From Minisyncoccota bacterium (lineage in GTDB: Bacteria > Patescibacteriota > Minisyncoccia > Phycocordibacterales > UBA9973), in contig JBAZRK010000001.1 in assembly GCA_041663005.1 (NCBI GenBank), forward strand, positions 222,734 through 286,733: a stretch of DNA of 64,000 nucleotides, read 5' to 3'. Positions 3,027 to 61,574 of the stretch are shown here, piece after piece; the first letter of the stretch is position 1; each line of letters opens with the position of its first letter. Position numbers and translations under genes: made by a program. The notes under the pieces were generated by a model. The model was given only the letters and a program-made list of their open reading frames with translations. It was not told the DNA's origin and made no database searches.

Positions 3027-3029
3027 AAT

Positions 3030-4187: not shown

Positions 4188-4195
4188 AGATTCAA

Positions 4196-5152: not shown

Positions 5153-5166
5153 GGAGATTTTCGTTA

Positions 5167-5195: not shown

Positions 5196-5203
5196 ATAAT
5201 GAT

Positions 5204-45280: not shown

Positions 45281-45862
45281 TTATACCAGATTAAAAATCC
45301 TTTTGCGATATATGCAATAAATTATTATCAGGTTAACTAAAATTAAATAGGCACTGAAAGAATATATAGTAAAAATCCAATATCTAATAACTAATAAACC
45401 TAAAATGTTGCTGGCAATACCTGCCACATAAGGACCGATAGATTCAGTTTCGGGAAACTTCCACGTCTTAAGAATTGTCGGAATAGCTGCCAAACCATCA
45501 CTTAGTATTGCAAACACAATAGCTATTGAAAGGTTATGGGTGAAGATATATAAAAGCAAAGCAAAGAGAGAAAGTAAGCCACAATATATATCAAAAATTC
45601 TTATCTCCCAATACTTATTCTTTCGAAATAATGAGAACACAACTACCAAAAAAGGCCCGAAACCCGCGAGAAAAATAGGTATAATAGAAAGCCCCGCACC
45701 TGCTTTCAGCTGGAAAAATACACCTATAAAAGGAGGGAGCATCCATAGCACCCAAGAAACTAGATTAGGTCTTGTTGTCCCAAGCAAAACTTCCTTAAGG
45801 TAGAAAAAATACCCCACAAGAGTAATTGCAATCGATATATAAGCAAATTGTTCGGCTATCAT
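45281..45862 (-). CDS. Polytopic membrane protein (hypothetical)
   Basis: 193 aa, about 6 TM segments. Confidence 0.5.
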   Translation of the reverse strand: MIAEQFAYISIAITLVGYFFYLKEVLLGTTRPNLVSWVLWMLPPFIGVFFQLKAGAGLSIIPIFLAGFGPFLVVVFSLFRKNKYWEIRIFDIYCGLLSLFALLLYIFTHNLSIAIVFAILSDGLAAIPTILKTWKFPETESIGPYVAGIASNILGLLVIRYWIFTIYSFSAYLILVNLIIIYCIYRKRIFNLV

Positions 45863-45863
45863 T

Positions 45864-46937
45864 TTATATCCCCTCTTTTTTGAGCTCTTCTACTGTTTCG
45901 CGAGCTTTGCGAGAGAGCTTGGAAGGGAGTTTGATGTTTAGTTTGATTAGGAGGTCACCGCGTCTGGTCTTGCCTACAGGCACACCCTTGCCTCGAACTC
46001 GGAGAATTTCATTGATACTTACACCTTCGGGAATAGTGACTTCAATTTCGCCGTCTAAAGTTTTAATAGGGTATTTTGTACCGAGGAGCGCGTCGCTTAA
46101 TTTCAAATCTAGGTCCATCACTAAATCGTTGCCTTCCCTTTTGAAAACCGGGTGCGGAGCAACATTTATCTTAATGTATAAATCTCCTGCCGTACCGCGC
46201 GAAATAGCTTCCCCCATACCGGTCATTCGAATCATTTCTCCATCGCGGATGCCGGATGGAATAACGATTGAAACTTCCTCCTCTCGGCGCAAGACACCTT
46301 TGCCCTTGCACTGTTCGCAGACCTCTTTCGGAACCTCACCCGAGCCATAGCAAGCCTCGCAGATTTTAGTATTGGCGATAGTTCCAAAAATTGTTTTCTT
46401 GGCTTCACGGATATGCCCCTGTCCATTGCACTGTTTGCAGGTTTCCATTTTGGACCCTACCTTCGCGCCTGTCCCCTTGCAGACTAAGCAATTGGAAGTT
46501 TTGGTGATTAAAATTTTTCGATTGGTTCCGAAAACTGCATCCGAAAAAGAAATTTGAATTTCGGTTGAAATATCGCGTCCTCGGCGAGCAGCGTTTCGAT
46601 TCATTCCCCCAGAGAAGAAATCGCTGAAAATGTCGTTGAGGTCGAAGTCCATTCCGCCGTTCTGGAAACCACTGAAGTCGAACCCTCCGAAGCCTTGCGC
46701 CCCGCCGTAACCACCACCCCCCATATTTTCGTACCCGGAGCCAAATTGATCATACTTCGAACGCTTCTCTTCGTCAGAGAGAACCTGGTAGGCTTCATTC
46801 ACTTCTTTGAACTTCTGCTCGTTACCGCCCTTTTTATCAGGGTGATATTTGTGCGCCATTTTATAGAAGGCTTTTTTAACCTCTTCCTTGGTAGCGCCCT
46901 TATTTATACCTAAAATTTCATAGTAATCTTTTGCCAT
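45864..46937 (-). CDS. dnaJ: Chaperone DnaJ
   Basis: J domain [13 protein letters not shown] region, four CxxCxGxG repeats. Confidence 0.9.
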
Positions 46938-46977: not shown

Positions 46978-48492
46978 CTATATCATCGGCTCGGCTTCGT
47001 GCGAGTTCTTGGCTTGGTGATCCGACTCTACCTGGTCGTAGGCTTCGTCTTCGGCCGTGGCATTTTCCGTGCCGTGAGTGTGACTTTTTGCTTTTCTTTC
47101 AATAATTGCCTTCTCCTCGGCGCTACGGATTATAGTTGCTTCTTCTTGGGCTATGAGTCGCGCAGCGGCGTCCTTAGGAATTGAATACTTGCGACGTGAA
47201 GCGGCAATTATCTCTTCTTGATACGACGGATGCGTCGGTGGCAATACACGCAAGGTCTCCGCCGAGAATGGATCGTAGGACTCTCCGTCGATTGTCATTT
47301 TGATATAAAATTCGGTCACCGCCAAGTTAATCATATCTTTAACATCGAAAAGGGGCGCGAACTCCGGCTTCATTTTGACTGCGTCTTCACCACCGATACG
47401 GAAAGTAATGATGCTTCCGCAATTTCCGAGCACCGCTTGGTGCACGCGAGTAATAATTTGACCGACGTACTGGTGCGCTACGGTAAGATTTAATCCATAT
47501 TTGCGAGCCTCAGAGAGAATGTTCTCGAAGGTTTGAGTCACAACGTTCTGGAACTCGTCCACGTATAGGTAAAAGTCTGTGCGGGCGGATTCATCCATCG
47601 AAGCGCGCTCCATCCCCGCTTGTTTAATCTTTGTCAGGAAAATAGAACCCAAGAATGAAGAATTTTCTTCACCTAGGCGCCCCTTCGAAATGTTAATGAG
47701 AACAATTTTTTTCTCATTCATCAACTTCGAAATATCAATCTTATTTTCCTTTTGTCCGAAAATATTGCGGAGCAACGGGTCTGACAGGAATTGCCCCAGC
47801 TTGTTGACCAGAGGAATGATGGCGTCCGTATCGAACTTCTCAGACCAGTCGGCGAATTCAATAGCGAAGAATCTCTTCACCATATCATCCGTAATGTATT
47901 CCACGACTTTCTGCCGGTAATTCCTGTCTGTCAGCATCGAAATCATCCCGCGCATCGTGGCGTGCGGGTAGTCGAGCAAGGCAAGACAGGTAAAGCGGAA
48001 CACGTGCTCGAGCCTAGGCGTCCAGTTGGCGCCGAATTGTTTCTGGAACACCTCGATCAATCCTTGGGTTAAAATAAATTTGAAAGCGGGATCAACGTTC
48101 GCCAGAGGGTTGAAGGATGCCGGATAATCCTTGTCAGTCGGGTCTATGATGCAGACATCGTCGATGCGATTTTTCGGCACGAAGTCAAGAATATTTTTAA
48201 ATTCGTCGCCGTGCGGGTCGATGAAGCATAGCCCGTGTCCATAATTTATATCCTGTCGAACTAGAAGCTCCAAGAGCTTCGACTTCCCCACCCCGGATTT
48301 TCCAATGATGTAGAGGTGTCTGCGGCGGTCGACGCGCTTGATACCGAAAATAAACTTTTTCTCTTCGAGTGAAGCGACATAGTTCGTACGACCGATGAAA
48401 GAAACTTCCGAAGGGTCAACTTTGCCGAAAACAGGCAGCTCCGGAGGCGGAGGTCCGTATTTTATTATTTGAACTCGATTTGGCTTAGGCAT
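46978..48492 (-). CDS. FtsK/HerA/VirD4-superfamily P-loop ATPase (paralog 1, soluble)
   Basis: Walker A GKSGVGKS, Walker B FYLYVDEFQN, ARKYGLNLTVAHQY. Confidence 0.7.
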   Translation of the reverse strand: MPKPNRVQIIKYGPPPPELPVFGKVDPSEVSFIGRTNYVASLEEKKFIFGIKRVDRRRHLYIIGKSGVGKSKLLELLVRQDINYGHGLCFIDPHGDEFKNILDFVPKNRIDDVCIIDPTDKDYPASFNPLANVDPAFKFILTQGLIEVFQKQFGANWTPRLEHVFRFTCLALLDYPHATMRGMISMLTDRNYRQKVVEYITDDMVKRFFAIEFADWSEKFDTDAIIPLVNKLGQFLSDPLLRNIFGQKENKIDISKLMNEKKIVLINISKGRLGEENSSFLGSIFLTKIKQAGMERASMDESARTDFYLYVDEFQNVVTQTFENILSEARKYGLNLTVAHQYVGQIITRVHQAVLGNCGSIITFRIGGEDAVKMKPEFAPLFDVKDMINLAVTEFYIKMTIDGESYDPFSAETLRVLPPTHPSYQEEIIAASRRKYSIPKDAAARLIAQEEATIIRSAEEKAIIERKAKSHTHGTENATAEDEAYDQVESDHQAKNSHEAEPMI

Positions 48493-48653: not shown

Positions 48654-50378
48654 TTAGTAAACCTCTTGTTGGTAACAACGTTCACAATACACAATTTCCG
48701 GCCGCTCAGGCGCATAAGAAGTCTCAAATTCGACTTCACACTTCCCTTCGTGGTTAGGATGTTTTTTATCGCACATACATTCTCTGCGCCAAAGTCGGGG
48801 CGGATTGACCAACTTAAATCTCTCCTGGTGCCTGCATTCGAAACAGCTTCGGGGTACAGGTAAATTAAATTTTTTCAGGAATAAAAATTCGTTCTGGATA
48901 ATTTTATAGGGCCTTTTGCAAGTTTCACACTCAATGACATAATTGACTATATCATCACTTGTGTCGTGTATGTCCGGCGGTAAATCTTTCGTGGTGTGAG
49001 TTATGCGCTGCTCTGGTTGTTCACGTTCAATATAGTTGTACCCATTGCTTAAAATATCCGCTTTGGTCTGCGGAAAATAATCTTGCGCGATGGTCTCATT
49101 GTAGCCAAAAGGAGAAATATCAATAGGAAAATATTCGCCATATTTATAAATTCTTCCTTTTTTGTCTATATAGGGCATATCCTGCATATGCTTTATTATT
49201 TCTTCCCTGAGTTTTTCAAAATCGTCCTTGGAATATTCTTTGTTAAAAATGCAATAATTTTTATTGCGTAATCCGACACAGCCAAAAATATTATTGCACC
49301 CGTGGCAATTCAGGGAGTATTCCGCGTTCAGACATTCCCATATCGTCAATCCGAAAAGTTGCCGTGAGCCGTTTATGCCAGAATCCATTGCCTCGTATAG
49401 TAATTCTGTGCTGACCCCAACTCCATAGCCGTCGTAACTTGTATAAAGCCCGTGGACCGCATTGGTAGTAAATTTGCAGTCCTTTAGGTCTTCTGAGTCG
49501 AAACAATGATAAGAGTTTTTTGAATGAAGAATATTATCTCCTGAAACATTTGAAGAATTAAGAATGTTGGCAAACTTTCTCAAGCTTTTTAATCGGAGAC
49601 TTTCGAATTTTTTCTTGGCTTCTTTGAAACTCTCAAAATTCCCTATATTTAATTCGCTTAATTTTTTGAAATACTCGTCTTTTGTCAACTGCTCATTCCA
49701 CATGCAGTAAGATTTATTCCTGAGGTTGGTACAACCAAAACAATTTATGCAGTTTTTACAATCATATAAAAAGTAAGAACTGGTGCATGCTTCGGCGTTT
49801 TGTGAAAAGAAAGTTTCGTAACATTTCAAACTAGAAACATCTCCATAGGAAAACTGGCAATCTCTAGTAATAAACATGTCCATGGAGTCTTTGCAATTAT
49901 TGCACCGCGAGCCGTAAGTAACATTTTCGCCGTCCCAAGACGCGGAGACTAGATAAGCGTTCCTGAATTCACCTATATAATTACCGTATGAAGTATTGAC
50001 GCATTTCCCGATAAAAAGATTTGGATGCGGTACTTGCTCCATCAGGTCCCGAAATTGACCAAAAAATGGCTTAGAAAAGTCATACTCCCTTCCATATTCC
50101 GTAGGGTCCCACTGATCGCCCCACCAAATATCTCGTTCGTACACAATAAACGGAGAGTCGGCTGAAAAGCAACTTATGAGATTTTTCCCTGTCTTTCCGC
50201 ATTTATTGCGATGTAGCGTTCTTTCATTTCGCCAAGCCATCCTTCTTTGCATTCTACACTCCGGGCAAAATGTCGGCGGTGGGACCTTTATTTTTTCGTA
50301 AAAATTGAAATCCTCCGACTCGATTGTAAATTTACCGTTACAATTCTGACATATTACATTTTGTGATTTATACTCCAT
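48654..50378 (-). CDS. Cysteine-rich two-ribbon protein, subtype A, copy 1 (574 aa)
   Basis: N- and C-terminal CxxC-x~24-CxxCR zf-trcl-like ribbons (EDFNFYEKIKVPPPTFCPEC). Internal YDCKNCINCFGC..LRNKSYC repeats. Confidence 0.8.
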   Translation of the reverse strand: MEYKSQNVICQNCNGKFTIESEDFNFYEKIKVPPPTFCPECRMQRRMAWRNERTLHRNKCGKTGKNLISCFSADSPFIVYERDIWWGDQWDPTEYGREYDFSKPFFGQFRDLMEQVPHPNLFIGKCVNTSYGNYIGEFRNAYLVSASWDGENVTYGSRCNNCKDSMDMFITRDCQFSYGDVSSLKCYETFFSQNAEACTSSYFLYDCKNCINCFGCTNLRNKSYCMWNEQLTKDEYFKKLSELNIGNFESFKEAKKKFESLRLKSLRKFANILNSSNVSGDNILHSKNSYHCFDSEDLKDCKFTTNAVHGLYTSYDGYGVGVSTELLYEAMDSGINGSRQLFGLTIWECLNAEYSLNCHGCNNIFGCVGLRNKNYCIFNKEYSKDDFEKLREEIIKHMQDMPYIDKKGRIYKYGEYFPIDISPFGYNETIAQDYFPQTKADILSNGYNYIEREQPEQRITHTTKDLPPDIHDTSDDIVNYVIECETCKRPYKIIQNEFLFLKKFNLPVPRSCFECRHQERFKLVNPPRLWRRECMCDKKHPNHEGKCEVEFETSYAPERPEIVYCERCYQQEVY

Positions 50379-50385
50379 ATACTTT

Positions 50386-50658
50386 TTATTCTATAATTCT
50401 AACGAATTGTAGAATACTTTTCCCGCGCTTACTAAGCGTGTGCCGTACTATACTCCCTTCACTTCTCTTTTTTACTAGACCAGCGATGTACATTTTGTTT
50501 ATATGCGCAGAAATATTTTTAAAGTCCGAGTTTACGTCACTAGAAATTTCCTGAACTGATAAATTGGGTTTCTTGCCCAGTAGCTCAAGTATTTTCAACC
50601 TGTTGTGGTTCGCCACTCCCTTTAAAATCCTTTCTAGCTCTCGTTTTGACTTTTTCAT
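50386..50658 (-). CDS. ArsR/SmtB-family winged-helix transcriptional regulator
   Basis: VANHNRLKILELL recognition-helix region. 90 aa. Confidence 0.8.
   Translation of the reverse strand: MKKSKRELERILKGVANHNRLKILELLGKKPNLSVQEISSDVNSDFKNISAHINKMYIAGLVKKRSEGSIVRHTLSKRGKSILQFVRIIE
50389..50414. promoter_or_regulatory. Operator-like imperfect inverted repeat TTCTATAATTC-taac-GAATTGTAGAA, immediately upstream of the Cys-rich A1 start
   Basis: Near-duplicate of the arsR promoter palindrome. Overlaps the last codons of arsR. Confidence 0.4.
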
Positions 50659-50704: not shown

Positions 50705-52393
50705 TTAGTACACCTCTGCCTGATAACATTTCTCACAATATACTATCTCCGGACGTTCTGGAGCATAACCAGTTTTAATGGCTTTACTGCATTTAATGCA
50801 AGTACGGTCATACAAAAGCGGCGGGTTACGTAGGCTTAAACGTTCAGCGTGTCTACAGTTGGGACATAGACGAGGAAATGGTAAGCCCATACGTTTCAGA
50901 AAATCAAGCTCTGTTTTGATGGCCCGAAATGCACCAGTGCATTCGTGCTTACATGAATCTTTGTGTTCGCATCCAAAAACTTCATTTAGAATTTCTTGGT
51001 CAATGTCTTTTATGTCATCAGGTAAATCACCCGTTTTTAGGGTGATATCGTATTTCGGTTTCTCTATTCCATAATAAACAAAACCCTGTTTCTCCATCTC
51101 GTCTTTAGATAACGGGAAAAATTCCTGCGCGGCACTCACTTCGTATGGATGGGGCGCCAGGGCACTAGGGAAAAATTCACCGTATTCCCCTGTCATTTTC
51201 ATATGCTCAATTATTTTTGGTACCAAGGCCTCGTATTCTTCTTTGGTGTACTGTTTATTTAAAATACAATATTTTTTACCACGTAGTGAAATGCAACCAA
51301 AAAGGTATGCGGAACTTATACAAAATACGCAATAACTTGATTCTCGGAGCTCGGGGAAACAATGCGTGGAAAACTTTACATTGTATGCCCCAGTACCAAC
51401 AATGAGCGACTCATATATCAGCTCGGCATTGTTCCCAAAGTTGGAGTAGTCGTAACAATCTCTTACGGGACCATTTGTAACATTTTGGACCCACTTAGAA
51501 TCCTCCACCCCAACAACTCTATAGCAATCATGTGTATTTTTAGACTCATAAATATAGTCACCTGAAACATTTACGTTTTGTCGACTATGTATGAATTTTT
51601 GGGGATAGTTAAGCCAGTGTGCATATGCTTCGTGTTTTATTGTTTCAAAATTTTTATAAGAACCTAAATGTAATTCTTTTATTTTCTTTAAATATTCTTC
51701 GCGTTCATAAGGCTGGTTGAAAATATAATAAGATTTATTGCGCAAACCCACAGATCCAAAGCACGAATTGCAACCTACGCAATCTTTACAAAAAGTAAGC
51801 TCCTGAGAGCTTTCGCAGTCTACTGAGAAAAGAGTCTGGTAGCAAGTTATACAATTAACGTTGCCGTAAGAAAGCTCGCAGGAATTGGTCATATGACTTT
51901 CAAGTGACCCGCGAGAGCCGTGGTCCCAAATAAGATATGCGGAATCTTCTGTATTGGTAGCACCGCGCACGTAATAGCAGTTTTTGATATTGGTAGCGTT
52001 TGTGCAATAAGAGCAATGTACAGCTCTCTCCATAGATGTCGAAGGCCAGGGAACTTCATGCAAGAGTTCTTTAAATTGTTCAAAAAACGGGCGAGAGAAA
52101 TCAAACTCTCTACCGTATATCATTGGATCCCAACCATCCGAAAACCAGAAATCTCTATCGTAAATTTTTATTGGCGATTCTTCAGGAAGAAAAGAGAATA
52201 TTTTTTCTCCTGTACGAGCATCAGTCTTTTTAAAAACGTGCCAATCATTTCTCCATGTCATTCTACGTTGAAATCTGCACCGCGGACAAAATGTCGGCGG
52301 CGGAACTTGCATTTTTTCATAAAAATTAAAATCTTCGTTGGTTATTACGAAGTCTTTTTTGCAATTCTGGCAGGTTCTTGTTTCGGCTTTCAT
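50705..52393 (-). CDS. Cysteine-rich two-ribbon protein, subtype B, copy 1 (562 aa)
   Basis: Same architecture as above. N-terminus M.AETRTCQNCKKDF. CKDCVGCNSCFG repeat. Confidence 0.8.
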   Translation of the reverse strand: MKAETRTCQNCKKDFVITNEDFNFYEKMQVPPPTFCPRCRFQRRMTWRNDWHVFKKTDARTGEKIFSFLPEESPIKIYDRDFWFSDGWDPMIYGREFDFSRPFFEQFKELLHEVPWPSTSMERAVHCSYCTNATNIKNCYYVRGATNTEDSAYLIWDHGSRGSLESHMTNSCELSYGNVNCITCYQTLFSVDCESSQELTFCKDCVGCNSCFGSVGLRNKSYYIFNQPYEREEYLKKIKELHLGSYKNFETIKHEAYAHWLNYPQKFIHSRQNVNVSGDYIYESKNTHDCYRVVGVEDSKWVQNVTNGPVRDCYDYSNFGNNAELIYESLIVGTGAYNVKFSTHCFPELRESSYCVFCISSAYLFGCISLRGKKYCILNKQYTKEEYEALVPKIIEHMKMTGEYGEFFPSALAPHPYEVSAAQEFFPLSKDEMEKQGFVYYGIEKPKYDITLKTGDLPDDIKDIDQEILNEVFGCEHKDSCKHECTGAFRAIKTELDFLKRMGLPFPRLCPNCRHAERLSLRNPPLLYDRTCIKCSKAIKTGYAPERPEIVYCEKCYQAEVY

Positions 52394-52420: not shown

Positions 52421-54550
52421 TTATTCTAAGATTTTTCGGAGCACGTCTTCAGGAACTTCGGGCGCAGGCTTCGGCACAGGAGGAACTGGCACCTGGGAGC
52501 TCGCGCTAGGGACAGGAGCTTGCGGAGGCGCCACAGGAGGTGCTGGAGGTTTCGGTGGTGCCGGCGGCGGAACAATAGTTTTCTGAGATATAAGATTTTT
52601 AAGTTTATTCATTTCGTCAGGAGTTGCAGCGCGATCTTTGGAAGACCTCGGGTCCTGATTTACATCTCGCATTTTATTTTTCAAAACATCGAGGGAAATA
52701 GGAGCGGGCGTGGGTTTGGGTGCAGGCTGTGGTGTAGGAGAAACAGGCTTGGCCTGAGAGGCATCTTTGGTCATAACCTTAGAGAGCACGTCTTTGAGCG
52801 CTTGGTTGTCTCCGCTTCGCGGCTGTGGCCTTGGAGCCTGCGGTACATTGTTTCTTTCCTGCTTGATAGGCGGTTTTGGCGTAAAAACTTTCTTGACGTC
52901 ACTGACGACTCCGGGTTTGGCAACTGGGGCGTATGGCTTGTCTACACGTTCGGGGTGCCTGTCGTGAGTTTCTATTTTGCTTTCATCTGGCTTAAACTCT
53001 ATGCCTATGTCCGCCAGAGGTTGGAAAAATTCTGACTCATCGTGAATCGGTTCATCCTTTTGACCTTTCTCCACCTTAACCTCCCCAGACTTAATTTTTG
53101 CGATGCATTCCTTACAGTAAGCAGGGCGGCCAGGTTCTGGTTTAAATGGTACAGTGCGTTCTTGTTTACATAGTGAGCAGATTATTGGGAATTTTTCTCC
53201 GGTTGGTGACGGAGCGCTGTTTGGGACACTGTCGCCCAAGGACATCCCGCTCCAGTCGTTGATCTCACGCTCCACGATTTCCCTTGAACGACAGTAAAGT
53301 TCCCTAGAGGATTTGATAACTTCCTCTTCAATGTTTTTGTCCCCTCCCTTTACCATTGGCGGTAAGGTTTTCGCGGAAAAAGGTCGTGAGGTTATGCCGT
53401 CTATCATAAGCTTCATATAGACCTTGTAGTTCGGCAGGTTCACAATGTCCTGGGGAGTAAACTCAGGCTCGAATTCTTTTTCCAAAAATTCTGCATCGTC
53501 GGCACCAACCCTGAAAACAATCATAGTCCCTACGTTGCCGAACACCGCATCGCGGACAGCGGTACTCTTGTCGGAGATAAGCTGCGCGGTGTACTGGTGC
53601 GCCACCGTGAGGTTCAATCGGTATTTGCGGGCTTCGGAGAGAATCCCCGCGAAAGCGTCCGTCACGAAGTTTTGAAATTCGTCGACATATAGATAGAAGT
53701 CTCGTCGGCTTTCTTCCGGTATACGCACACGCTCCATCGCCGCAAGCTGAATCTTGGTAATTATCATACCTCCGAGCAGAGCGGAGTTGTCTTCCCCGAT
53801 TCTTCCTTTGGAAACGTTGACGAGGAAAATTTTCCCCTCGTTCATCATATCGAAAATATTTATTGTACTTTTCGATTGCCCCACGACGTTTCGAATTATC
53901 GAAGTTGAGAGAAACTGCCCGACTTTGTTCTGAATTGGGGCAATGGCTTCATTTCTGAATTTGTCTTGCCAAGCTTCGTATTCGTGAACCCAGAAAGCTT
54001 TAATCACCGGGTCTTTCAAATTTGAAATTATTTTCTGTCGATAGTCCTTGTCGACGAGCATTCTTGGAATTCCCAAAAGTGTCGTCCCCGGGGTGTCGAG
54101 CAAGGCGAGAATTGTATTGTTTAAAATGTATTCCATTCGGGCGCTCCAAGCATTGGCCCAAATTTTCGTAAAGATTCCCATAAGCCCGGACGCCACGAGG
54201 TGCTTGTACTGCGGGTCTACTAATTCCAAAACATTGAACCCTATGTGGTAGTCGGCATCAGCCGGATTGAAATAGATTACATCCTTCAAGCGATGGCGCG
54301 GGATAGCTCCGAGCACTGTCTCCACGTTTTCTCCGTGAGGGTCGACAAGGCAGACGCCTTCTCCGTTCTGGATGTTCTGGATAATCATATTGAACAATAG
54401 TACCGATTTACCGGTACCTGACTTCCCGAGAAGGTAAACGTGCTGACGCCTATCTTTGCGCTTAATACCAAAAAGCTGGTTTCTATCTCGGTAAGTGGTT
54501 AGCCCGATGTAGGTAACGTCTTTGTTTATAGGTATTTCCGCAATCTCCAT
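52421..54550 (-). CDS. FtsK/HerA/VirD4-superfamily P-loop ATPase (paralog 2) with a C-terminal zinc ribbon and Pro-rich tail. The start is re-set to the internal Met.
   Basis: Walker A GKSGTGKS, Walker B FYLYVDEFQN. CSLCK...RPAYCKEC ribbon. PAPPKPPAPP low-complexity tail. The track start at 54667 would read through the dnaK terminator. Confidence 0.7.
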   Translation of the reverse strand: MEIAEIPINKDVTYIGLTTYRDRNQLFGIKRKDRRQHVYLLGKSGTGKSVLLFNMIIQNIQNGEGVCLVDPHGENVETVLGAIPRHRLKDVIYFNPADADYHIGFNVLELVDPQYKHLVASGLMGIFTKIWANAWSARMEYILNNTILALLDTPGTTLLGIPRMLVDKDYRQKIISNLKDPVIKAFWVHEYEAWQDKFRNEAIAPIQNKVGQFLSTSIIRNVVGQSKSTINIFDMMNEGKIFLVNVSKGRIGEDNSALLGGMIITKIQLAAMERVRIPEESRRDFYLYVDEFQNFVTDAFAGILSEARKYRLNLTVAHQYTAQLISDKSTAVRDAVFGNVGTMIVFRVGADDAEFLEKEFEPEFTPQDIVNLPNYKVYMKLMIDGITSRPFSAKTLPPMVKGGDKNIEEEVIKSSRELYCRSREIVEREINDWSGMSLGDSVPNSAPSPTGEKFPIICSLCKQERTVPFKPEPGRPAYCKECIAKIKSGEVKVEKGQKDEPIHDESEFFQPLADIGIEFKPDESKIETHDRHPERVDKPYAPVAKPGVVSDVKKVFTPKPPIKQERNNVPQAPRPQPRSGDNQALKDVLSKVMTKDASQAKPVSPTPQPAPKPTPAPISLDVLKNKMRDVNQDPRSSKDRAATPDEMNKLKNLISQKTIVPPPAPPKPPAPPVAPPQAPVPSASSQVPVPPVPKPAPEVPEDVLRKILE

Positions 54551-54581: not shown

Positions 54582-54606
54582 AAAAAGCCCCTTGCGGGGC
54601 TTTTTG
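54582..54606 (-). terminator. Intrinsic terminator immediately downstream of dnaK
   Basis: aaaaa gcccc ttgc ggggc ttttt, 3 nt after the dnaK stop codon. Confidence 0.7.
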
Positions 54607-54608: not shown

Positions 54609-56522
54609 TTACTTAGCTTCGTTCTGAGGAGGTTCCTCGCCTTCTTTCTTTTCCTTGAATTCCGCATCTTTGACTTCAGCGGGTTGTTCTTCGGGGGCTC
54701 CGGTTGGCGGAGTTTGAGCGCCAGCCTTGTTCATTGCCTCACCGATTTTGGACATTTCGGCAGACAATTCTTCGGTGGCCTTTTTGATAGCTTCGCCGTC
54801 TGTTCCATCTTTTACCCCACGAAGCGCAGTAATTTTCGCCTCCACTTCAGTTTTCAATTCTGCGGAAATTTTGTCTCCGGCGTCTTTCACCGCTTTTTCT
54901 GCTGTATAGATAATCATCTCGGCGGTGTTTTTCACTTCAGCATTTTCTTTCTTTTTCTTGTCTTCCTCGGCGTGCACTTCAGCGTCCGCTTGCATCTTTT
55001 TGATATCTTCTTCTTTGAGCCCGGAGCTTGCTTCAATTTTTATTGATTGAGTTTTACCTGAAGCCTTATCTTTCGCAGTAACATTCAATATTCCGTTGGC
55101 ATCCACATCGAATGACACCTCAATCTGCGGCATACCTCGAGGAGCTGGCGGAACACCGTCCAGGATAAATCGCCCGAGAGATTTGTTATCGCTTGCCATT
55201 GGGCGCTCTCCCTGCACAATGTGAATTTCTACAGAAGTCTGATTGTCGGCAGCTGTAGAGAAGGTCTGGGATTTACTGGACGGGATGGTGGTGTTTCTTT
55301 CCACTAATTTCGTAGCCACGCCTCCGAGAGTCTCAATTCCCAGAGAAAGCGGAATAACGTCGAGGAGGAGAACATCGCGTACATCTCCTTGCAAAACTCC
55401 GGCTTGCACCGCAGCACCAAGAGCGACGACTTCGTCAGGGTTAATGGTTAGGTTAGGAGCTTTGCCAAATACTTTTTTCACTTCTTCTACAATCTTCGGC
55501 ATCCTGGTCTGACCTCCGACCATCACTATTTCATTCATATCTTCCATCTTGAATCCAGAGGCAGCCATAGCTCGCTTGGTAATTTCGATAGAGCGAGTAA
55601 CGTATTCATCTGCTAGGGATTCTAACTGCGCCCGAGTCATCTTGAGCAATAAGTGCTGAGGACCTTCTGCTGTAGAAGTGATAAATGGAATGTTGATTTC
55701 GGATTCTATTGCAGTAGAGAGCTCAATTTTTGCTTTTTCTGCTGCTTCGTCTAAGCGTTGCAATGCGAGCTTGTCTCCGCGCACGTCCACTCCGGAAGTT
55801 TTCTTAAATTCTTCGGCAATCCAGTTAATTATCTTGTGGTCAATATCTCGTCCGCCCATATGGCTGTCTCCGTCTGTAGACTTAACTTCGATGACATCAT
55901 CTCCGATTTCGAGCACAGACACGTCGAATGTTCCGCCTCCGAAGTCGTAGACCACTATTTTCTCATTTTTCTTTTTATTAAATCCGTAAGCGAGGGCCGC
56001 CGCTGTAGGCTCGTTGATAATTCTTTTTACATCGAGTCCGGCAATTGCACCTGCGTCTTTCGTTGCCTTTCTTTGGGCATCGTTAAAGTATGCGGGAACA
56101 GTGATGACAGCTTCAGTAATTTTCTCGCCGAGTTTTGTTTCGACGTCAGTTTTAATTTTAGAAAGAATCATCGCCGACACTTCTTCCGGTCGCATCCACT
56201 TATCACCGATTTTTACTTCCACTCCGCCGTTGGCAGATTTTTGAATTTTGAAAGATGCATTCTTTAAATCTTTCTGCACTTCAGGATCTTCAAAATTGTG
56301 ACCCATAAAGCGCTTGATGCCGTACACTGTATTTTCCGGATTGGTCACCGCCTGCCTTTTCGCAAGTAAGCCTACAAGCCTGTCTCCATTTTTAGCAACG
56401 GCTACTACCGAAGGAGTCGTGCGGTTCCCTTCTACGTTTTCAATAATTTTCGGCACACCGCCCTCTATGACGGCTACCGCAGAATTTGTCGTACCCAAGT
56501 CTATTCCTATGATTTTTGACAT
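54609..56522 (-). CDS. dnaK: Chaperone DnaK (Hsp70)
   Basis: [32 protein letters not shown]. Confidence 0.95.
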
Positions 56523-56646: not shown

Positions 56647-57168
56647 ATGTCAAGGAAAAAGGACTACTCGGGCAAAATAATCAAAATTTTAGGCAAAAAA
56701 CCGGCTACTTCTGTCGAAGAAATTTGGACTGGTTTCCCTGACCAGAATCGATATTCTGTAACTAGATCATTAAAGGGCCTTCGTGAGGCAGGTCTCATTG
56801 AGGCTCTTTCCTCCGCTCATTGTGAATATGCACGCCTCACAAAAGAAGGAAAAAAGAAAATGCATAGTCTAATTCTCGAGAGTAATACTGGCCTGGTGAA
56901 CACTTCCTGGGACGGATTTTGGAGGATAATTTTGCTCGACCTTCCAGAAGAAAGAAAAAGCGAGCGCGAAAGTCTGCGCTACCTACTAAAAAAAGCTGGC
57001 TTCGTCTGCCTAAAGAATTCTGCCTGGATCTCCCCTTTCCCATACGAGCATCTCTTCACAAATATTAAAAAAGATTTAGGCCTGACGACAGAAATGATGA
57101 TTATGGTCACCGACAAAATCGACGAAGAATCTAAAAAGGTTTTATTTCAAACCTTCGGGCAAAGTTAA
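56647..57168 (+). CDS. PaaX-like transcriptional regulator (wHTH plus PaaX_C-like domain)
   Basis: C-terminal WDGFW...LPEER...LRYLL.KAGF..L.NSAWISPFP matches the PaaX C-domain pattern (recalled from memory). Confidence 0.55.
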   Translation: MSRKKDYSGKIIKILGKKPATSVEEIWTGFPDQNRYSVTRSLKGLREAGLIEALSSAHCEYARLTKEGKKKMHSLILESNTGLVNTSWDGFWRIILLDLPEERKSERESLRYLLKKAGFVCLKNSAWISPFPYEHLFTNIKKDLGLTTEMMIMVTDKIDEESKKVLFQTFGQS

Positions 57169-57206
57169 TCTCCTTACATATGTAAGGATAGGTGTAAGGA
57201 GATTAA
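57166..57206. terminator. Convergent-gene hairpin: perfect 14-bp inverted repeat TTAATCTCCTTACA ... TGTAAGGAGATTAA, with an inner CCTTACAtaTGTAAGG palindrome
   Basis: Lies between the PaaX-like stop and the Cys-rich A2 stop. Confidence 0.45.
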
Positions 57207-58888
57207 TACACCTCTTTGTTGTAGCAACTTTCGCAATAAACTTTCTCCGGTCGCTCTGGAGAGTAGGGTGTTTCAAATTCATTCTGGCAACCTGAATTCA
57301 TACATTGTCTGTGCCAAAGCTTAAGTGGGTTCTTTTTACGTACACGTTCGCCGTGACGACAAAATGGACATAATGTGGGTAGTGGTAAATTAAATTTTTT
57401 ATAGAAGTTGTATTCAAATAGTGTAATCTTAAACGCCCTCGGGCAGTTGTCATCACACTTACCTCCATGTCCACACTCTATTACCTGTTCGAGGATTCCT
57501 AGGTCTGGTAAAATGTCGGGAATTGCAGAATTTTTTAATGTAATATCGTAATTTTTCTCCTCCAAAACTGCCCAATTGAAACCTTCTGCTCCAGCCCTTT
57601 CGGAATCAAGCGGAAAGTAGTCTTGGGCTTGAGTCTCGTTATATCCAAAAGGAGAATATTTCGCGGGGAAAAATTCTCCGTATTCTCCCAATTTCAGCAT
57701 CTGGTCGACTATCTCTTTTCGTAGTTTTAAGTAGTCTTCTTTCGAATATTGCTTATTGAAAATGCAGTAAGACTTATTGCGGAGACCTATGCACCCAAAA
57801 ATATTGTTACAGTCAAAACAATTATACGAATATTCAATATCGAAACCTCCCCATATGAGCGAAGAGAAATTTACTCGCTGGGCCTCAACACTGTGGGTGT
57901 CATAACAAAGCTCTGCGCCATCCCAAGCAATGGTCCCATCATAAATATCCTTACAGTTGCCCCACACCCTAAAGGAGTAGCGCACATTTTCTGAATCTCT
58001 CACATAAAAACCCTGATTTACAAAGCGTGCGTTCAGCACATCATCCCCTATCGCTTTTTCAGCCTTAGTAATCACCGCGTATTTCCTGGGAACTTTTAAC
58101 TTTAACTCTTCGAATTTTTCCTGGGTATTACTTAGTCCTGCGCGAGAATTCAATTTGAGTTCTTCTAATTTTTTAAAATATTCTTCCTTGGAGTATTGTT
58201 CGTTAAAAATACAGTAAGACTGACTGCGCAAACCTACACACCCAATACAATTGTTGCAATTACGACAGTCATATAAGTAATAAGAATCGACACACCCTTC
58301 GCAGTTCTGACTAAAAAATAAATTGTAGGATTTAACGCAATCAATTAGTTCGTAACAATACTCGGCAAAATTAGAACCATATAAATCAACAGAAAACTTG
58401 GTGTCCGTAACCGCACCAAACACATAAGACGAGTCCTCCACGCGCACAAAGCCCGCCGACCAATAAACATTCTTGGCATCGGTGCAATAGTTGGTATATT
58501 CACTATTTACGCCATTACGAGTTACGACATTCGGATGCGGTACCGCTTTTAAAAGTTCGTCGAATTGCTCGAAGAATGGACGTGTAAAATCATATTCACG
58601 ACCGAAAGACATAGGGTCCCACGCATCACTACGGAAATAGGCCTGTTCATAAACTTTATACGGAGCATCAGGTCGAAAAATAGAGAGCATTGGCTTGCCC
58701 GTGGCATCACACACCCGCCTGTGCCAGCTGCGCTCATTGCGCCAAGCCATACGTCTCTTCATCCTGCATTCAAAACAAAACGTCGGCGGTGGAACTTTTA
58801 TTTTTTCATAGAAACTAAAATCTTCACTTTCTATGGTGAAATCTTTTTTACAGTTTTGGCAGATTTTGTTTTCGTTTTTATATTCCAT
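57203..58888 (-). CDS. Cysteine-rich two-ribbon protein, subtype A, copy 2 (561 aa)
   Basis: N-terminus MEYKNENKICQNCKKDFTIESEDFSFYEKIKVPPPTFC, near-identical to copy A1. YDCRNCNNCIGC repeat. Confidence 0.8.
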   Translation of the reverse strand: MEYKNENKICQNCKKDFTIESEDFSFYEKIKVPPPTFCFECRMKRRMAWRNERSWHRRVCDATGKPMLSIFRPDAPYKVYEQAYFRSDAWDPMSFGREYDFTRPFFEQFDELLKAVPHPNVVTRNGVNSEYTNYCTDAKNVYWSAGFVRVEDSSYVFGAVTDTKFSVDLYGSNFAEYCYELIDCVKSYNLFFSQNCEGCVDSYYLYDCRNCNNCIGCVGLRSQSYCIFNEQYSKEEYFKKLEELKLNSRAGLSNTQEKFEELKLKVPRKYAVITKAEKAIGDDVLNARFVNQGFYVRDSENVRYSFRVWGNCKDIYDGTIAWDGAELCYDTHSVEAQRVNFSSLIWGGFDIEYSYNCFDCNNIFGCIGLRNKSYCIFNKQYSKEDYLKLRKEIVDQMLKLGEYGEFFPAKYSPFGYNETQAQDYFPLDSERAGAEGFNWAVLEEKNYDITLKNSAIPDILPDLGILEQVIECGHGGKCDDNCPRAFKITLFEYNFYKKFNLPLPTLCPFCRHGERVRKKNPLKLWHRQCMNSGCQNEFETPYSPERPEKVYCESCYNKEVY

Positions 58889-58921: not shown

Positions 58922-60619
58922 TTAATACACTTCTTTGTTGTAGCAACTTTCGCAATAAACTTTCTCCGGCCGCTCTGGAGAATATGGAGTTTCAAATTCG
59001 TTAGGGCATTTTGCGGCATGGCCGTGAGCTTCGACTGCACATTTGCAATTACTATGCCAAAGACGGCGCGGCGGACGCAAACCAAATCTCCTTCTGTATC
59101 TGCAGTTCGGGCACTTTCGCGGTATTGGAATTTTCTCTTTTTGATAAAACAAAAACTCGTTTCGGGTAATATTGTAATTTTTTGAACATTCTACGCAAGC
59201 TAAAATTTCGTTCAGAATGGTTTCCGGCACATCTTCTATTTTATCAGGAATTTTTTCGCTCGTGATAGTTTCCTTGCCCAAAGTACCGCCCAAGTTTTCT
59301 TCCCAATGCCAACCTTTGGCTAAAACTTCGTTTTTTGTCATTGGCTCATACATATTGCCCTGCGTTTCGTTGTAGTAAATAGGCGCAATTTGAGGTGGAA
59401 AAAATTCGCCATATTCCCCTGTTCTCTTCATATGCTCAATGATTTTTTCTTTTAGCGCCAGATAGTCTGCTTTAGAATATTTTTTATTAAAAATCATGTA
59501 TTCGCCCTTTTTCACACTCACGCAACCAAAAAGATTCTGGCTATTTTGGCAAGTGTCGGAATAATCAATATTCATGTTGTCGTAAGATAAATGGCAAAAA
59601 TGGCAATTGGAAATACGAGCACTCCCCTGACACTCGTAGCTCAATTCAACATGGTCGCCCACGTGATATAAATCCATAGAATCCTTTACCCCATCCGGAC
59701 TGCAGATAAGAAATTTAGAATTCTCCCCCATTAGTGTCTCAAATGATAATGCCACGTTCCTGCAGTCAAAAATCATGCTACCTATAGAGTTAATATTTCT
59801 TTCACTTACAGTGTAACGGTGTACGGCCTCTTCCCGCATAATCTTTTCAAATTCTTTCTCTAGGCCTTGGCGTACCGTAAACGAAGAGAGATCGTATTCT
59901 TTTATCTTTTTTAAATATTCTTCCCGAGTATACTGTTTATTGCGGAATACATAACTTTTGCCCCGGAGGTTTGTAGACATAAAGCAATTATTACATCCGC
60001 GACAATCGAAACAGTAAAAACAAGAAGAGCAATCTTTTATGAATTTCCCATACTGACATTCATAAGAAATACGAGAGTCCGTAACTTCGTACAATCTTTC
60101 TCCTTTCTCGTAAATGTAGCTGCAATCTATTAAATCTCGCGAGTTCCAAATTAATGTGCTGTATAACGCATTCTCGTTGTAGAAGGCAGAAAAGGTGAGG
60201 TAAACATTTTTATTATCACTCGAATGATTGGTATATTCAGAATTTTCACTATTTTTATTTAGGAGTGCCATGCGGGGTACGTCATGCTGGAGTTCGGCAA
60301 ACTGTTCAAAAAATGGGCGAGAAAAATCAAAATCGCGGCCGTAAGAAGTCGCATCCCAGCCATCGCCCCACCAGCACGAATTGCAATACACTTTATAGGG
60401 CTTATTTTGGGAATAAATCGTCACCGTACTCTTGCCGCACAAGTCGCACGACCTACGGTATAAATTGCGTTCGTTCCTCCACGCATAACGCCGCAACTGC
60501 CGACAGCCTGGACACCAAGTCGGCGGTGGGACTTTAATCTTCTCATAAAAATTAAAGTCTTCACTATCAATCGTGAAATCTTGTTTACAGTTTTGACAAT
60601 TTCTGGTTTCTGGTCTCAT
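58922..60619 (-). CDS. Cysteine-rich two-ribbon protein, subtype B, copy 2 (565 aa)
   Basis: N-terminus MRPETRNCQNCKQDF. CFYCFDCRGCNNC repeat. The C-terminal 28 aa are identical to copy A2. Confidence 0.8.
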   Translation of the reverse strand: MRPETRNCQNCKQDFTIDSEDFNFYEKIKVPPPTWCPGCRQLRRYAWRNERNLYRRSCDLCGKSTVTIYSQNKPYKVYCNSCWWGDGWDATSYGRDFDFSRPFFEQFAELQHDVPRMALLNKNSENSEYTNHSSDNKNVYLTFSAFYNENALYSTLIWNSRDLIDCSYIYEKGERLYEVTDSRISYECQYGKFIKDCSSCFYCFDCRGCNNCFMSTNLRGKSYVFRNKQYTREEYLKKIKEYDLSSFTVRQGLEKEFEKIMREEAVHRYTVSERNINSIGSMIFDCRNVALSFETLMGENSKFLICSPDGVKDSMDLYHVGDHVELSYECQGSARISNCHFCHLSYDNMNIDYSDTCQNSQNLFGCVSVKKGEYMIFNKKYSKADYLALKEKIIEHMKRTGEYGEFFPPQIAPIYYNETQGNMYEPMTKNEVLAKGWHWEENLGGTLGKETITSEKIPDKIEDVPETILNEILACVECSKNYNITRNEFLFYQKEKIPIPRKCPNCRYRRRFGLRPPRRLWHSNCKCAVEAHGHAAKCPNEFETPYSPERPEKVYCESCYNKEVY

Positions 60620-60688: not shown

Positions 60689-60973
60689 TTATAAAGAGTT
60701 ATCCACATCGCTGTTTTTATTGTGAAAAAACCGGAATGGCATATTATCCACCAGAATGGGGTTATCAGAAAATAGCCTGCGAAGAGCTGAAACTCCTTTT
60801 CTAAATTTACCAAATACGGAAAAAGCAAAATGCTGCTTAACGCGACATCCAAAGCATTGCTCCGGGATTTTCAATCCTACTTTTTCATACAAAAGTAAAT
60901 CGCCAGAATCTATTATAAATTCTTCTTTACAATCAGCGCAAATTTTACTCTCCGTTTTTGAATTCATAGACAT
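60689..60973 (-). CDS. Stand-alone single zf-trcl-like zinc-ribbon protein (~90 aa). A miniature relative of the Cys-rich family.
   Basis: CADCKEEFIIDSGDLLLYEKVGLKIPEQCFGCR. Its start region overlaps the grpE 3' end. Confidence 0.5.
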   Translation of the reverse strand: MSMNSKTESKICADCKEEFIIDSGDLLLYEKVGLKIPEQCFGCRVKQHFAFSVFGKFRKGVSALRRLFSDNPILVDNMPFRFFHNKNSDVDNSL

Positions 60974-61535
60974 TCACCCGAGCGGCACGCATTACGCGCT
61001 CACCGAGCTTATAGCCTTTCTGCACAACTTCGGCAACTTTATGGTCAAGGTCTTTCTGGTCCGTGGCCACCATATCTATAGACTGGTGAATGTTGGGGTC
61101 GAAAGCTTCACCCTCTTCACCTATCGGCTTCACGCCATATTCCTCGAATATGCCATTCATTTGCGCATAAATATACTCCACGCCCTTGCGCCAAGTAGCG
61201 TCAACTTTCTCCCAGGCCTCCTTGTTGGCGAAAGCCATATTGAAACTGTCTATAACCGTCAGGAAACGAGTAAGTATTCGCTCGCGCATCGCTTCGGAAA
61301 AGACGCCCTTGCGGTCATCTTCCTGCTTTTTATAGTTGGCAAAGTCGGCCCGCTCTTTCTGCCAGCCTGTTAGATACTCTTCTTTCTCTTTTTTGGCTTG
61401 TTTTAGGTCAGCGCGAAGCTTTTTGAGGGTTTTTTTCACGTCTTCTTCGCCGTCGTCATTAAATTCAAACTCGACAACATCATCTTCCGCCTCAGGCTCT
61501 TCTTTTTTCTTATCTTCATCGTTCATATGGCTCAT
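60945..61535 (-). CDS. grpE: Nucleotide exchange factor GrpE. The start is re-set to the ATG downstream of the terminator.
   Basis: GrpE coiled-coil and beta domain (NPQDAV-like HQSIDMV). The track's TTG start at 61562 lies inside the terminator hairpin. Confidence 0.85.
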   Translation of the reverse strand: MSHMNDEDKKKEEPEAEDDVVEFEFNDDGEEDVKKTLKKLRADLKQAKKEKEEYLTGWQKERADFANYKKQEDDRKGVFSEAMRERILTRFLTVIDSFNMAFANKEAWEKVDATWRKGVEYIYAQMNGIFEEYGVKPIGEEGEAFDPNIHQSIDMVATDQKDLDHKVAEVVQKGYKLGERVMRAARVNVYEFKNGE

Positions 61536-61543
61536 ATTAGCAT

Positions 61544-61574
61544 AAAAAAATCCCTCTTCCAAGAGGGATTTTTT
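61544..61574. terminator. Bidirectional intrinsic terminator between rpsI and grpE
   Basis: aaaaaaa tccctctt cc aagaggga tttttt. Confidence 0.7.

Follow-up and report, generated by a model that had tools for sequence, protein, structure and literature searches.

Paralogous type IV coupling protein-like ATPases of Patescibacteria and their association with Cys-rich zinc-ribbon proteins

Type IV coupling proteins (T4CPs) such as TrwB of R388, VirD4, TraD and DotL/IcmO possess a RecA-like P-loop core with an inserted all-alpha domain. The C-terminal tails of T4CPs bind adaptors, for instance TraM in the case of TraD and IcmSW in the case of DotL. Here, we describe two paralogous T4CP-like ATPases, ATPase-1 and ATPase-2, which are encoded next to a family of Cys-rich proteins in a stretch of 64,000 nt from a Minisyncoccota bacterium (assembly GCA_041663005.1, contig JBAZRK010000001.1, positions 222,734 to 286,733); this whole stretch is called the window, and coordinates are window positions unless a locus is named. 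A large part of bacterial diversity belongs to the Patescibacteria, whose genomes are very small; yet nearly all of them keep about two T4CP-like ATPases. According to a survey from 2025, 2,918 of 3,035 Patescibacteria genomes together contain 5,713 VirD4-type T4CP homologues, about two per genome, and only 148 of the 5,713 are located near virB4, VirB4 being present in 2,417 genomes (PMC12102498). In Ca. S. epibionticum, the VirD4-type homologue is dispensable, whereas the type IV secretion system (T4SS) is essential (PMC12102498). The survey suggested that the unlinked T4CP homologues "may have been exapted" (PMC12102498). The existence of such unlinked homologues in Patescibacteria has already been published, and the ATPase pair of the window is the "orphan" T4CP-homologue pair of this survey.

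The best explanation for the locus is that the two ATPases constitute an exapted, membrane-tethered T4CP-like motor pair with Cys-rich zinc-ribbon/beta-solenoid proteins as putative clients, and that they are inherited vertically as an "orphan" pair in nearly all Patescibacteria. We assign a probability of about 0.45 to this reading as a whole. It would turn the exaptation remark of the survey into a concrete four-part module, which consists of paralogues with docking peptides, a membrane partner revealed by fusions, candidate clients and an insertion into the Hsp70 operon. In the literature searched, we did not find a description of the two-paralogue split, the ribbon-bearing paralogue, the terminal motifs, the PF26449 membrane partner and its fusions, the phylum-wide link to Cys-rich solenoid proteins or the grpE-dnaK-dnaJ insertion. 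An earlier note, made from the sequence of the window, had pointed to the two open reading frames (ORFs), which lie on the minus strand, and regarded their products as paralogues; this is borne out by 46% identity over 427 residues (E 2e-134). The relevant features, with "TM" standing for transmembrane, are the following:

46978-48492, minus strand: ATPase-1, 504 amino acids (aa), TM-less T4CP-like (VirD4/TraD/TrwB-type) P-loop ATPase
48421-48492, minus strand: conserved N-terminal peptide of ATPase-1, MPKPNRVQIIKYGPPPPELPVFGK, with the PPxxLPxxG motif
48280-48303, minus strand: Walker A of ATPase-1, GKSGVGKS, aa 64-71, aligned to the P-loop of TrwB
47545-47574, minus strand: Walker B of ATPase-1, FYLYVDEFQN, aa 307-316, aligned to LWLFIDEL of TrwB
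47467-47508, minus strand: ARKYGLNLTVAHQY of ATPase-1, aa 329-342, conserved Arg-Lys...Gln strand after Walker B, aligned to GRKAGLRVVAGLQ of TrwB
46981-47001, minus strand: C-terminal peptide of ATPase-1, HEAEPMI-COOH, after a variable charged linker
52421-54550, minus strand: ATPase-2, 709 aa, T4CP-like ATPase with CxxC-x17-CxxC ribbon and Pro-rich tail
54404-54427, minus strand: Walker A motif of ATPase-2, GKSGTGKS
53669-53698, minus strand: Walker B motif of ATPase-2, FYLYVDEFQN
53105-53179, minus strand: zinc ribbon of ATPase-2, CSLCKQERTVPFKPEPGRPAYCKEC, aa 458-482 of 709, PF23477/TIGR04272
52424-53104, minus strand: tail of ATPase-2, 227 aa with 44 prolines (19% Pro), ending in the conserved EVPEDVLRKILE-COOH

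Profile searches confirmed the FtsK-HerA/VirD4-type assignment made before, as TrwB_AAD_bind (PF10412), T4SS-DNA_transf (PF02534), TraG-D_C (PF12696) and DUF87 (PF01935) all scored above threshold in both ATPases. PF10412 spans aa 56-365 of ATPase-1 and aa 71-388 of the 748-aa ATPase-2 ORF. The best NCBIfam matches of both proteins are TraD and VirD4-like models, with scores far under the equivalog cut-offs (43-56 bits vs 250-650; at the top 55.7 bits vs 366 for SXT_TraD and 45.5 vs 250 for CD1115). The inserted all-alpha domain was found in the AlphaFold2 (AF2) model as seven helices between residues 135 and 245, the confidence of this model being moderate. By structure comparison, 318 residues align with TrwB and DotL, and the closest solved relatives are TrwB, VirB4, DptH, HerA and FtsK. 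By profile and by fold, both ATPases belong to the VirD4/TraD/TrwB (T4CP) branch of the FtsK-HerA superfamily. They descend from the VirB4/VirD4 branch and would work like its members, T4CPs being the best overall match. An assignment to PilB/PilT or to ordinary ABC families, which the earlier note had considered as the opposite outcome, did not emerge: there was no T2SSE match, and ABC_tran matched only in the P-loop region (E 0.0048, 17.9 bits vs a cut-off of 25).

Two properties separate the window ATPases from T4CPs. First, neither the ATPases nor the Cys-rich proteins contain a stretch of 19 residues whose Kyte-Doolittle mean reaches 1.6; the maxima of the two ATPases are 1.03 and 1.13, in agreement with the earlier statement that neither has a TM segment, and an N-terminal TM anchor is thus lacking by this measure. 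Second, a linkage to relaxase, virB4 or mating-pair-formation genes was found neither in the 64-kb window nor as a recurrent cluster in 83 related loci, which is in line with the survey (PMC12102498). Because both the TM anchor and the relaxase/mating-pair-formation linkage fail, the proteins are named T4CP-like and not T4CPs. Moreover, and unlike T4CPs, the pair consists of two conserved chromosomal paralogues per genome, of which one carries a zinc ribbon and a Pro-rich tail, and the partner of ATPases of this type is a PF26449 protein. The alignment of the Walker A, Walker B and RK...Q strand to TrwB, listed above, is a likeness to T4CPs, and so are the flexible C-terminal tails that could dock partners.

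Other relatives fit less well. The combination of a HerA core, an N-terminal HAS barrel and NurA or another effector partner was not found, and neither was the FtsK/SpoIIIE architecture of an alpha/beta motor with a gamma domain and N-terminal TM segments. The C-terminal ATPase domain of VirB4 is related, but neither Pfam nor NCBIfam showed a match of the window ATPases to VirB4 N-domains, and the VirB4-type NCBIfam matches are weak (E 1e-4 to 7e-3). In contrast to DptH and the C-domain of DndH, they have no Dnd/Dpt neighbours. EccC/EssC of type VII secretion are of the FtsK/SpoIIIE type and belong to another branch; they differ from the window ATPases by several ATPase domains per chain, by their own TM segments and by other membrane partners. 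The same two-part architecture of a PF26449-type N-region and an ATPase C-region is present in phrog_5156 and in gp156 of Bacillus phage G (825 aa; 2861-5338 in locus L086). The N-region of gp156 matches the PF26449-type domain (hhalign 95%) and its C-region is 29% identical to the ATPase; the phrog_5156 profile matches ATPase-1 (E 4e-53), ATPase-2 (E 3e-61) and the PF26449 protein (E 3e-7). However, gp156 is phage-encoded, lies beside a VirB-like gene and is only remotely similar. Remote homologues of the ATPase also occur in SPO1-like Bacillus phages.

The three motifs quoted in the earlier note, FGIKR[VK]DRR[RQ]H[LV]Y[IL][IL]GKSG[VT]GKS, DFYLYVDEFQN and ARKY[GR]LNLTVAHQY, are present in both ATPases, with intact Walker A and Walker B. 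The strand formed by ARKYGLNLTVAHQY may provide an arginine finger. The two paralogues differ at their termini. PPxxLPxxG is found in 63 of 69 ATPase-1 orthologues and in no ATPase-2. The ending E[AP]EP[ML][IV]-COOH, preceded by a variable charged linker, recurs in most ATPase-1 orthologues and across most lineages, and the ATPases of other classes that are fused to PF26449 end in the related [AEK]P[LV][IV]. In the AF2 model of ATPase-1, the predicted local distance difference test (pLDDT) is below 50 for residues 454-504, which fits a flexible tail. In ATPase-2 orthologues of Nomurabacteria and neighbouring groups, a Pro-rich linker is followed by the terminal EVPEDVLRKILE-COOH, and the tail of the window protein confirms the proline-rich extension described before. 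Within this tail there are four spaced amphipathic D/E-x-L-x-K-x-L motifs (ALKDVLSKVM, SLDVLKNKM, EMNKLKNLI and PEDVLRKILE), which suggest multivalent partner binding. Conserved terminal peptides on flexible tethers are what would be expected of docking motifs.

The ribbon of ATPase-2 is genuine, since it matches PF23477 zf_Tbcl_2 (E 6.6e-10, 39.0 bits vs a cut-off of 27) and TIGR04272 CxxC-x17-CxxC (E 1e-10, 41.2 bits vs 36). The spacing given in the earlier note has to be corrected: 12 and not 15 residues separate CSLCK from RPAYCKEC, and therefore the two CxxC pairs are 17 residues apart. A CxxC...CxxC ribbon (pattern spacing 10-22) occupies the same position in 47 of 57 ATPase-2-type proteins of related loci. 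The longest ATPase-2 ORF (748 aa) starts at 54667 and overlaps dnaK. The start at 54550 is favoured because a strong terminator lies upstream (54605-54582) and because 709 aa were called independently in a near-identical contig (ena:ERZ27249449:k141_962724, 332,839 bp, reached via the Cys-rich protein P0122). A look-up of the exact ATPase-1 sequence found no entry.

To compare neighbourhoods, one genome per GTDB species was taken, which yielded 80 loci of 46% to 90% identity from Nomurabacteria, Paceibacteria, Staskawicz-, Nealson-, Abawaca-, Peri-, Peregrini-, Levyi- and Berkelbacteria; the ORFs of these loci were called, clustered and labelled with the window proteins. By far the commonest neighbour of the ATPases within 10 kb is the Cys-rich family, with 142 copies in 47 of the 80 loci, so that the co-occurrence of ATPases and ribbon proteins that the earlier note wished to see examined extends across the phylum. 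A Cys-rich gene directly adjoins an ATPase gene in 32 loci, 137 of the 142 copies are co-oriented with the nearest ATPase, and arrays reach up to 11 copies (9-11 in L045, L049 and L063). Both ATPase paralogues lie at most 10 kb apart in 45 loci. The chaperone genes are distributed differently: dnaJ immediately follows the 3' end of ATPase-1 in 24 loci and dnaK lies at most two genes upstream of ATPase-2 in 15, all of them from the Nomurabacteria-like clade, and 26 of the 47 loci with Cys-rich genes contain neither dnaK nor dnaJ. From these counts we conclude that the association of ATPases and Cys-rich proteins is real, ancient and spans several classes, and that the link to chaperone genes is mainly lineage-specific. 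In some distant lineages (L025, L069 and L074), dnaK-dnaJ lies upstream of the module by a few kb and within 10 kb, perhaps owing to old synteny. Separately, a gene for CutA1, a divalent-ion tolerance protein, adjoins ATPase-1 or the PaaX-dnaK pair in 19 of the 80 loci (for instance 5037-5342 in L013).

The neighbourhoods also revealed a membrane partner. Outside the Nomurabacteria-like clade, the recurrent gene order is secD/secF, a gene for a protein with sigma70_r4 and HARE-HTH, the PF26449 gene, a gene for a TM protein of about 178 aa, ATPase-1, in some cases CutA1, and ATPase-2. The PF26449 protein, named after its precomputed Pfam label, has about 450 aa and an N-terminal TM segment. As a stand-alone protein it is encoded in 24 of the 80 loci, directly upstream of ATPase-1 with at most one intervening gene in 16 of them and next to an ATPase-2-type gene in five. 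In nine proteins from eight loci it forms the N-terminal part of a fusion with the ATPase (BLASTP to the stand-alone form, E 1e-7 to 1e-30), five of the nine fusions retaining a detectable N-terminal TM segment, and the domain is also found at the N-terminus of 68 of the 150 closest 50%-identity representatives of the ATPase. Furthermore, PPxxLPxxG is common to the C-terminus of the PF26449 protein (12 of 26 stand-alone copies) and the N-terminus of ATPase-1; the stand-alone protein ends in RKxGPPAGLPIYG, and ATPase-1 starts with KYGPPPPELPVFG. Relatives of the ATPases are thus coupled to a PF26449 membrane protein, and the ATPase family is probably membrane-associated via this partner because PF26449 is encoded upstream or fused in other Patescibacteria. 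The earlier proposal of a soluble translocase or remodelling motor holds for the window proteins insofar as they are TM-less, but it needs revision in view of relatives that pair or fuse with a TM-anchored protein. Searches with the PF26449 protein returned nothing meaningful in the local Pfam copy, in NCBIfam or in a sequence-profile search of the PDB, and PF26449 is not mentioned in the literature searched. Among its top 120 homologues, the named sources are Parcubacteria, Liptonbacteria, Jorgensenbacteria, Ryanbacteria and Minisyncoccia; the name Nomurabacteria does not occur, which does not by itself settle an absence from this group. As a further observation, the gene for the sigma-70 region 4 and HARE-HTH protein directly precedes the PF26449 gene in 20 of the 80 loci (for instance 6704-7744 in L041), often after secD/secF.

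The window contains four full-length Cys-rich genes and one probable remnant:

58922-60619, minus strand: Cys-rich paralogue of 565 aa, from ORF, profile and paralogue comparison
57203-58888, minus strand: Cys-rich paralogue of 561 aa, from ORF and paralogue comparison
50705-52393, minus strand: Cys-rich paralogue of 562 aa, 41% identical to the 574-aa copy, with sub-threshold zf_Tbcl (N-terminal) and zf_Tbcl_2 (C-terminal) matches
48654-50378, minus strand: Cys-rich protein of 574 aa with an N-terminal treble-clef-like ribbon, two beta-solenoid domains and two C-terminal ribbons
60692-60973, minus strand: truncated ribbon ORF of about 93 aa, Cys-rich hidden Markov model (HMM) score 35.7, zf_Tbcl E 0.0011

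The four proteins are mutually 41-48% identical and have no Pfam or NCBIfam assignment above threshold; the architecture of about 570 aa with two beta-solenoids matched no described family. More than 7,000 homologues exist, whose source names are all "hypothetical protein" and whose named organisms are all Patescibacteria. When the HMM of the family was run on the window, it detected the four genes and the remnant, all within 48.6-61 kb, and nothing in the other 46 kb. The ORF at 60692-60973 comprises only the N-terminal ribbon and overlaps the grpE stop; it is a probable truncated fifth copy, and full-length Cys-rich genes stand at its position in L088 and L090. A confident structural model based on a 65-sequence alignment (pLDDT 84.7, predicted template modelling score 0.87) shows an N-terminal ribbon, a small alpha/beta region and a first long stretch of short strands, followed by a helical hairpin, a second long stretch of short strands, a small domain and, at the C-terminus, a pair of ribbons. 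The cysteines that are conserved in 98-100% of the sequences form three groups of four (residues 10/13/38/41, 484/487/512/515 and 534/547/565/568), central clusters lie around residues 207-216 and 358-367, and the N-terminal ribbon is the most conserved part. It has been shown by inductively coupled plasma mass spectrometry that small archaeal proteins that carry the CxxC-x17-CxxC domain bind zinc (PMC12704099), and work on such archaeal small proteins was the only relevant hit for zf_Tbcl, zf-trcl or PF13451 in the literature searched.

According to the earlier note, the ATPase-2 ribbon and the Cys-rich proteins are of the same type. The ribbon of ATPase-2 is a member of TIGR04272/PF23477 zf_Tbcl_2, whereas the matches of the Cys-rich proteins to PF23477 and PF13451 zf_Tbcl stay under the threshold (E 0.0017-0.0054; for PF23477, 18.4 and 16.8 bits vs a cut-off of 27 in two of the four). 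On the other hand, the C-terminal ribbon C-x5-FETxYxPxRPExVYCxxCY of the Cys-rich proteins can be aligned with C-x5-VPFxPxxGRPVYCxxC of ATPase-2, with an hhalign probability of 76.7% (E 2e-5, 26 columns). A common ribbon domain thus finds modest support and may well be real. The variable copy number, the conserved ribbon caps next to less conserved solenoids, the lack of a Sec signal and the tight co-directional packing with the ATPases would all fit clients of the motor pair.

Taken as a mechanism, ATPase-1 and ATPase-2 would form ring motors, possibly mixed ones, which would be tethered to the membrane through PF26449 wherever this partner exists. ATPase-1 might dock via PPPPELPxFG at its N-terminus and EAEPMI at its C-terminus, and ATPase-2 via its ribbon, the Pro-rich tether and the C-terminal EVPEDVLRKILE. 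ATP would then be spent to translocate or remodel the co-encoded Cys-rich proteins, whose C-terminal ribbon appears to be of the type found in ATPase-2. The Hsp70 system may assist in the Nomurabacteria-like lineage, although this link is lineage-restricted and perhaps due to mere conserved gene order.

Several points weigh against the motor-client interpretation. In 33 of the 80 loci, there is no Cys-rich gene within 10 kb of the ATPases. In L088 (4082-11758), four Cys-rich genes come directly after grpE, and neither an ATPase gene nor dnaK lies within 10 kb; therefore, the coupling of ATPases and Cys-rich genes is not obligate in gene order, and the Cys-rich family also tracks grpE by itself. 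Gene order is strongly conserved in Patescibacteria, so part of the adjacency may be historical. A tblastn search of the window gave no match to the PF26449 protein, the small TM protein encoded beside it, the sigma70_r4/HARE-HTH protein or SecDF, so that tethering is only putative for this organism. The AF2 model of ATPase-1 is only moderate, with a pLDDT of 66 overall and below 50 for residues 315-350. Two points speak against exported, fast-evolving effectors: the 574-aa copy shares 64-77% identity with its orthologues in other genomes, and zinc-thiolate ribbons are typical of intracellular proteins. Classical secreted effectors are thus less likely, and the clients may be exported, assembled or remodelled. 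Finally, all mechanistic steps are deduced from gene neighbourhood, fusions and motifs.

It is conceivable, although unlikely, that the ATPase pair, PF26449 and the Cys-rich arrays make up a Patescibacteria-specific, T4SS-independent system for protein export or surface display that arose from exapted T4CP motors, with the C-terminal ribbon as recognition signal and the exported solenoids serving in host attachment. There is a modest chance that a new translocation system has been found. Export of the clients would amount to a new secretion route in organisms that depend on host contact; if they are not exported, the pair would still represent a conserved ATP-driven machine in a minimal genome.

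Among the alternatives, the most resilient, though still unlikely, is that the ATPases are true coupling proteins of a T4SS that is encoded elsewhere (near dnaA/dnaN in Paceibacteria), recruiting substrates to VirB4/VirB6, with the Cys-rich proteins as effectors or adaptors. Fold and profiles are indeed those of T4CPs, 80% of Patescibacteria genomes contain a T4SS, which is essential in Ca. S. epibionticum, and T4CP genes can be distant from virB4 (PMC12102498). However, the window ATPases lack the N-terminal TM domain, no T4SS gene lies within the 64 kb, and the partner conserved by adjacency and fusion is PF26449 and not a VirB protein. The survey figures given above point the same way, as the T4CP homologues occur in more genomes than VirB4, are rarely found near virB4 and are dispensable in Ca. 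S. epibionticum despite its essential T4SS.

Ribbons of the treble-clef type frequently bind nucleic acids. It could be argued that the ATPases are DNA translocases for DNA uptake, chromosome handling or conjugation-like transfer, and that the zinc-ribbon proteins are nucleic-acid-binding accessories, a view that we consider improbable. The closest solved relatives are mostly DNA-handling motors, and there are weak NCBIfam matches to the archaeal DNA-translocating ATPase CedD (E 6e-6 and 7e-5); moreover, Patescibacteria depend on imported DNA and nucleotides (PMC12857230). But the neighbourhoods of the related loci contain no conserved relaxase, ComEC, nuclease or other DNA-processing gene, and variable arrays of 2-11 beta-solenoid paralogues would be unusual beside DNA motors. 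Moreover, Saccharibacteria transcriptome studies report a canonical FtsK, for which reason a replacement of FtsK was judged to be weak as well.

Only slightly less plausible, and likewise improbable, is a proteostasis or metal/redox-stress module, in which the Cys-rich proteins would serve as holdases that depend on zinc, or as zinc buffers, and the ATPases would act as unfoldase-like remodellers in cooperation with GrpE-DnaK-DnaJ. This idea draws on the arrangement of the locus, as the genes are interleaved with grpE, dnaK and dnaJ in this lineage and dnaJ directly follows ATPase-1 in many loci; Cys-rich genes also stand directly after grpE in L088, dnaK-dnaJ lies near the module in the three distant lineages mentioned above, and an ArsR/SmtB-type regulator and CutA1 recur nearby. 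Against it, dnaK and dnaJ each possess a separate promoter-like site (11/12 for that of dnaJ), dnaK is followed by a strong terminator, a CIRCE element is missing, more than half of the loci with Cys-rich genes have neither dnaK nor dnaJ, the ArsR protein has no cysteine and no visible C-terminal His/Asp metal motif, and T4CP-type ATPases are not known as unfoldases.

Very unlikely is the reading that adjacency is meaningless and that unrelated core genes are held together by the strong synteny of reduced genomes. The surrounding gene order is conserved as well (cysS, a membrane protein of the AI-2E transporter family PF01594, rplU, recR and dnaB), and nearby Cys-rich genes are missing from the 33 loci noted above. 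Yet the association outlasts extensive rearrangement in Abawacabacteria (L063), Peribacteria (L065) and Staskawiczbacteria (L045 and L049), whose other neighbours are all different. The copies also share one orientation and follow each other closely, only 27, 46 and 7 bp separating ATPase-2, Cys562, ArsR and Cys574, and a ribbon domain is probably common to ATPase-2 and the Cys-rich family. An origin in anti-phage defence or a mobile element (HerA, DptH or MADS-like), to which PADLOC mad8 matches (E 3e-12 and 9e-16), weak HerA matches, the phrog_5156 matches and the remote homologue in Bacillus phage G might point, can practically be dismissed because the ATPases are near-universal, highly conserved core genes in conserved synteny, have no nuclease, methylase, Sir2 or integrase neighbour, match no PADLOC profiles other than ATPase ones, equal their flanks in guanine-plus-cytosine (GC) content and are almost absent from viral contigs.

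The core-gene status of the ATPase pair is well supported. In a word-indexed search, ATPase-1 had over 7,900 homologues (E<=1e-10). Identities of 81-90% were seen in the best 120 homologue clusters, whose named organisms are Nomurabacteria, Parcubacteria or Patescibacteria only. An exhaustive HMMER search over 1.84 billion representatives gave 5,287 clusters (50% identity) at E<=1e-30, and pattern scans of 2.9 million viral contigs found one locus for the ATPase and one for the Cys-rich family. The pair thus consists of core chromosomal genes that are not located on a mobile element; a mobile-element or phage origin was rejected on the grounds of GC content, housekeeping context and this near-absence from viral contigs.

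The pair of Cys-rich genes bracketed by the ATPases, the "left pair" of the earlier note, is a section of a larger block from grpE to dnaJ, and the position of the ATPase pair inside grpE-dnaK-dnaJ had been overlooked. The order on the minus strand is grpE, the truncated ribbon ORF, Cys565, Cys561, (the PaaX-like gene on the plus strand), dnaK, ATPase-2, Cys562, ArsR, Cys574, ATPase-1 and dnaJ, where the numbers give the length of the Cys-rich proteins. The remaining features of the block are:

60945-61562, minus strand: grpE, GrpE profile E 2.7e-35, upstream end of the block
56647-57168, plus strand: PaaX-like regulator (PaaX_M, Cas2-like winged helix), divergent from dnaK
54609-56522, minus strand: dnaK, directly upstream of ATPase-2, HSP70 gene call in the near-identical contig
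54582-54605, minus strand: terminator-like hairpin with 10 pairs and a T run, which separates dnaK from ATPase-2
50386-50658, minus strand: ArsR/SmtB-type helix-turn-helix protein, 90 aa, HTH_5 E 1e-7, NF033788 E 7e-13, between two Cys-rich genes
45864-46937, minus strand: dnaJ, 40 bp downstream of ATPase-1, the gap containing the promoter-like site

The gap upstream of ATPase-1 measures 161 bp. The GC content of the block is unremarkable and the same as in the flanks, and no T4SS, relaxase or integrase gene was found in the window. Control by a controlling inverted repeat of chaperone expression (CIRCE) and HrcA was rejected, as no CIRCE-like site was detected at up to three mismatches, the window contains no hrcA, and the suspected ORF turned out to be rpoA. 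The PaaX-like protein may be a local regulator of dnaK; a PaaX-family gene is present in 12 of the 80 loci and adjoins dnaK in all but one. The ArsR-type gene occurs in only a few related loci, and a metal-sensing role was discarded because the protein lacks Cys and no C-terminal His/Asp metal-site motif was seen on reading the sequence. Directly after dnaJ, at 45281-45862 on the minus strand, follows a gene for a 193-aa protein that looks polytopic by eye and has no Pfam match. Its family is found 3' of dnaJ in most Nomurabacteria-like loci and also in dnaJ-less Cys-rich/ATPase clusters (L029, L033 and L045), and it is a candidate membrane component where PF26449 is not nearby.

The other genes of the window are housekeeping genes: pur genes and genes for PBP2, MurG, FtsW, MraY, ScpAB, tRNA synthetases and PEPCK, as well as dnaB and recR. 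At 637-6571 on the plus strand, the pur genes form a run for de novo purine synthesis (formyltransferase, GARS, AIR carboxylase, AIR-synthase-like protein, SAICAR synthetase and adenylosuccinate lyase), which is unusual because Patescibacteria are generally described as being without nucleotide synthesis (PMC12857230).

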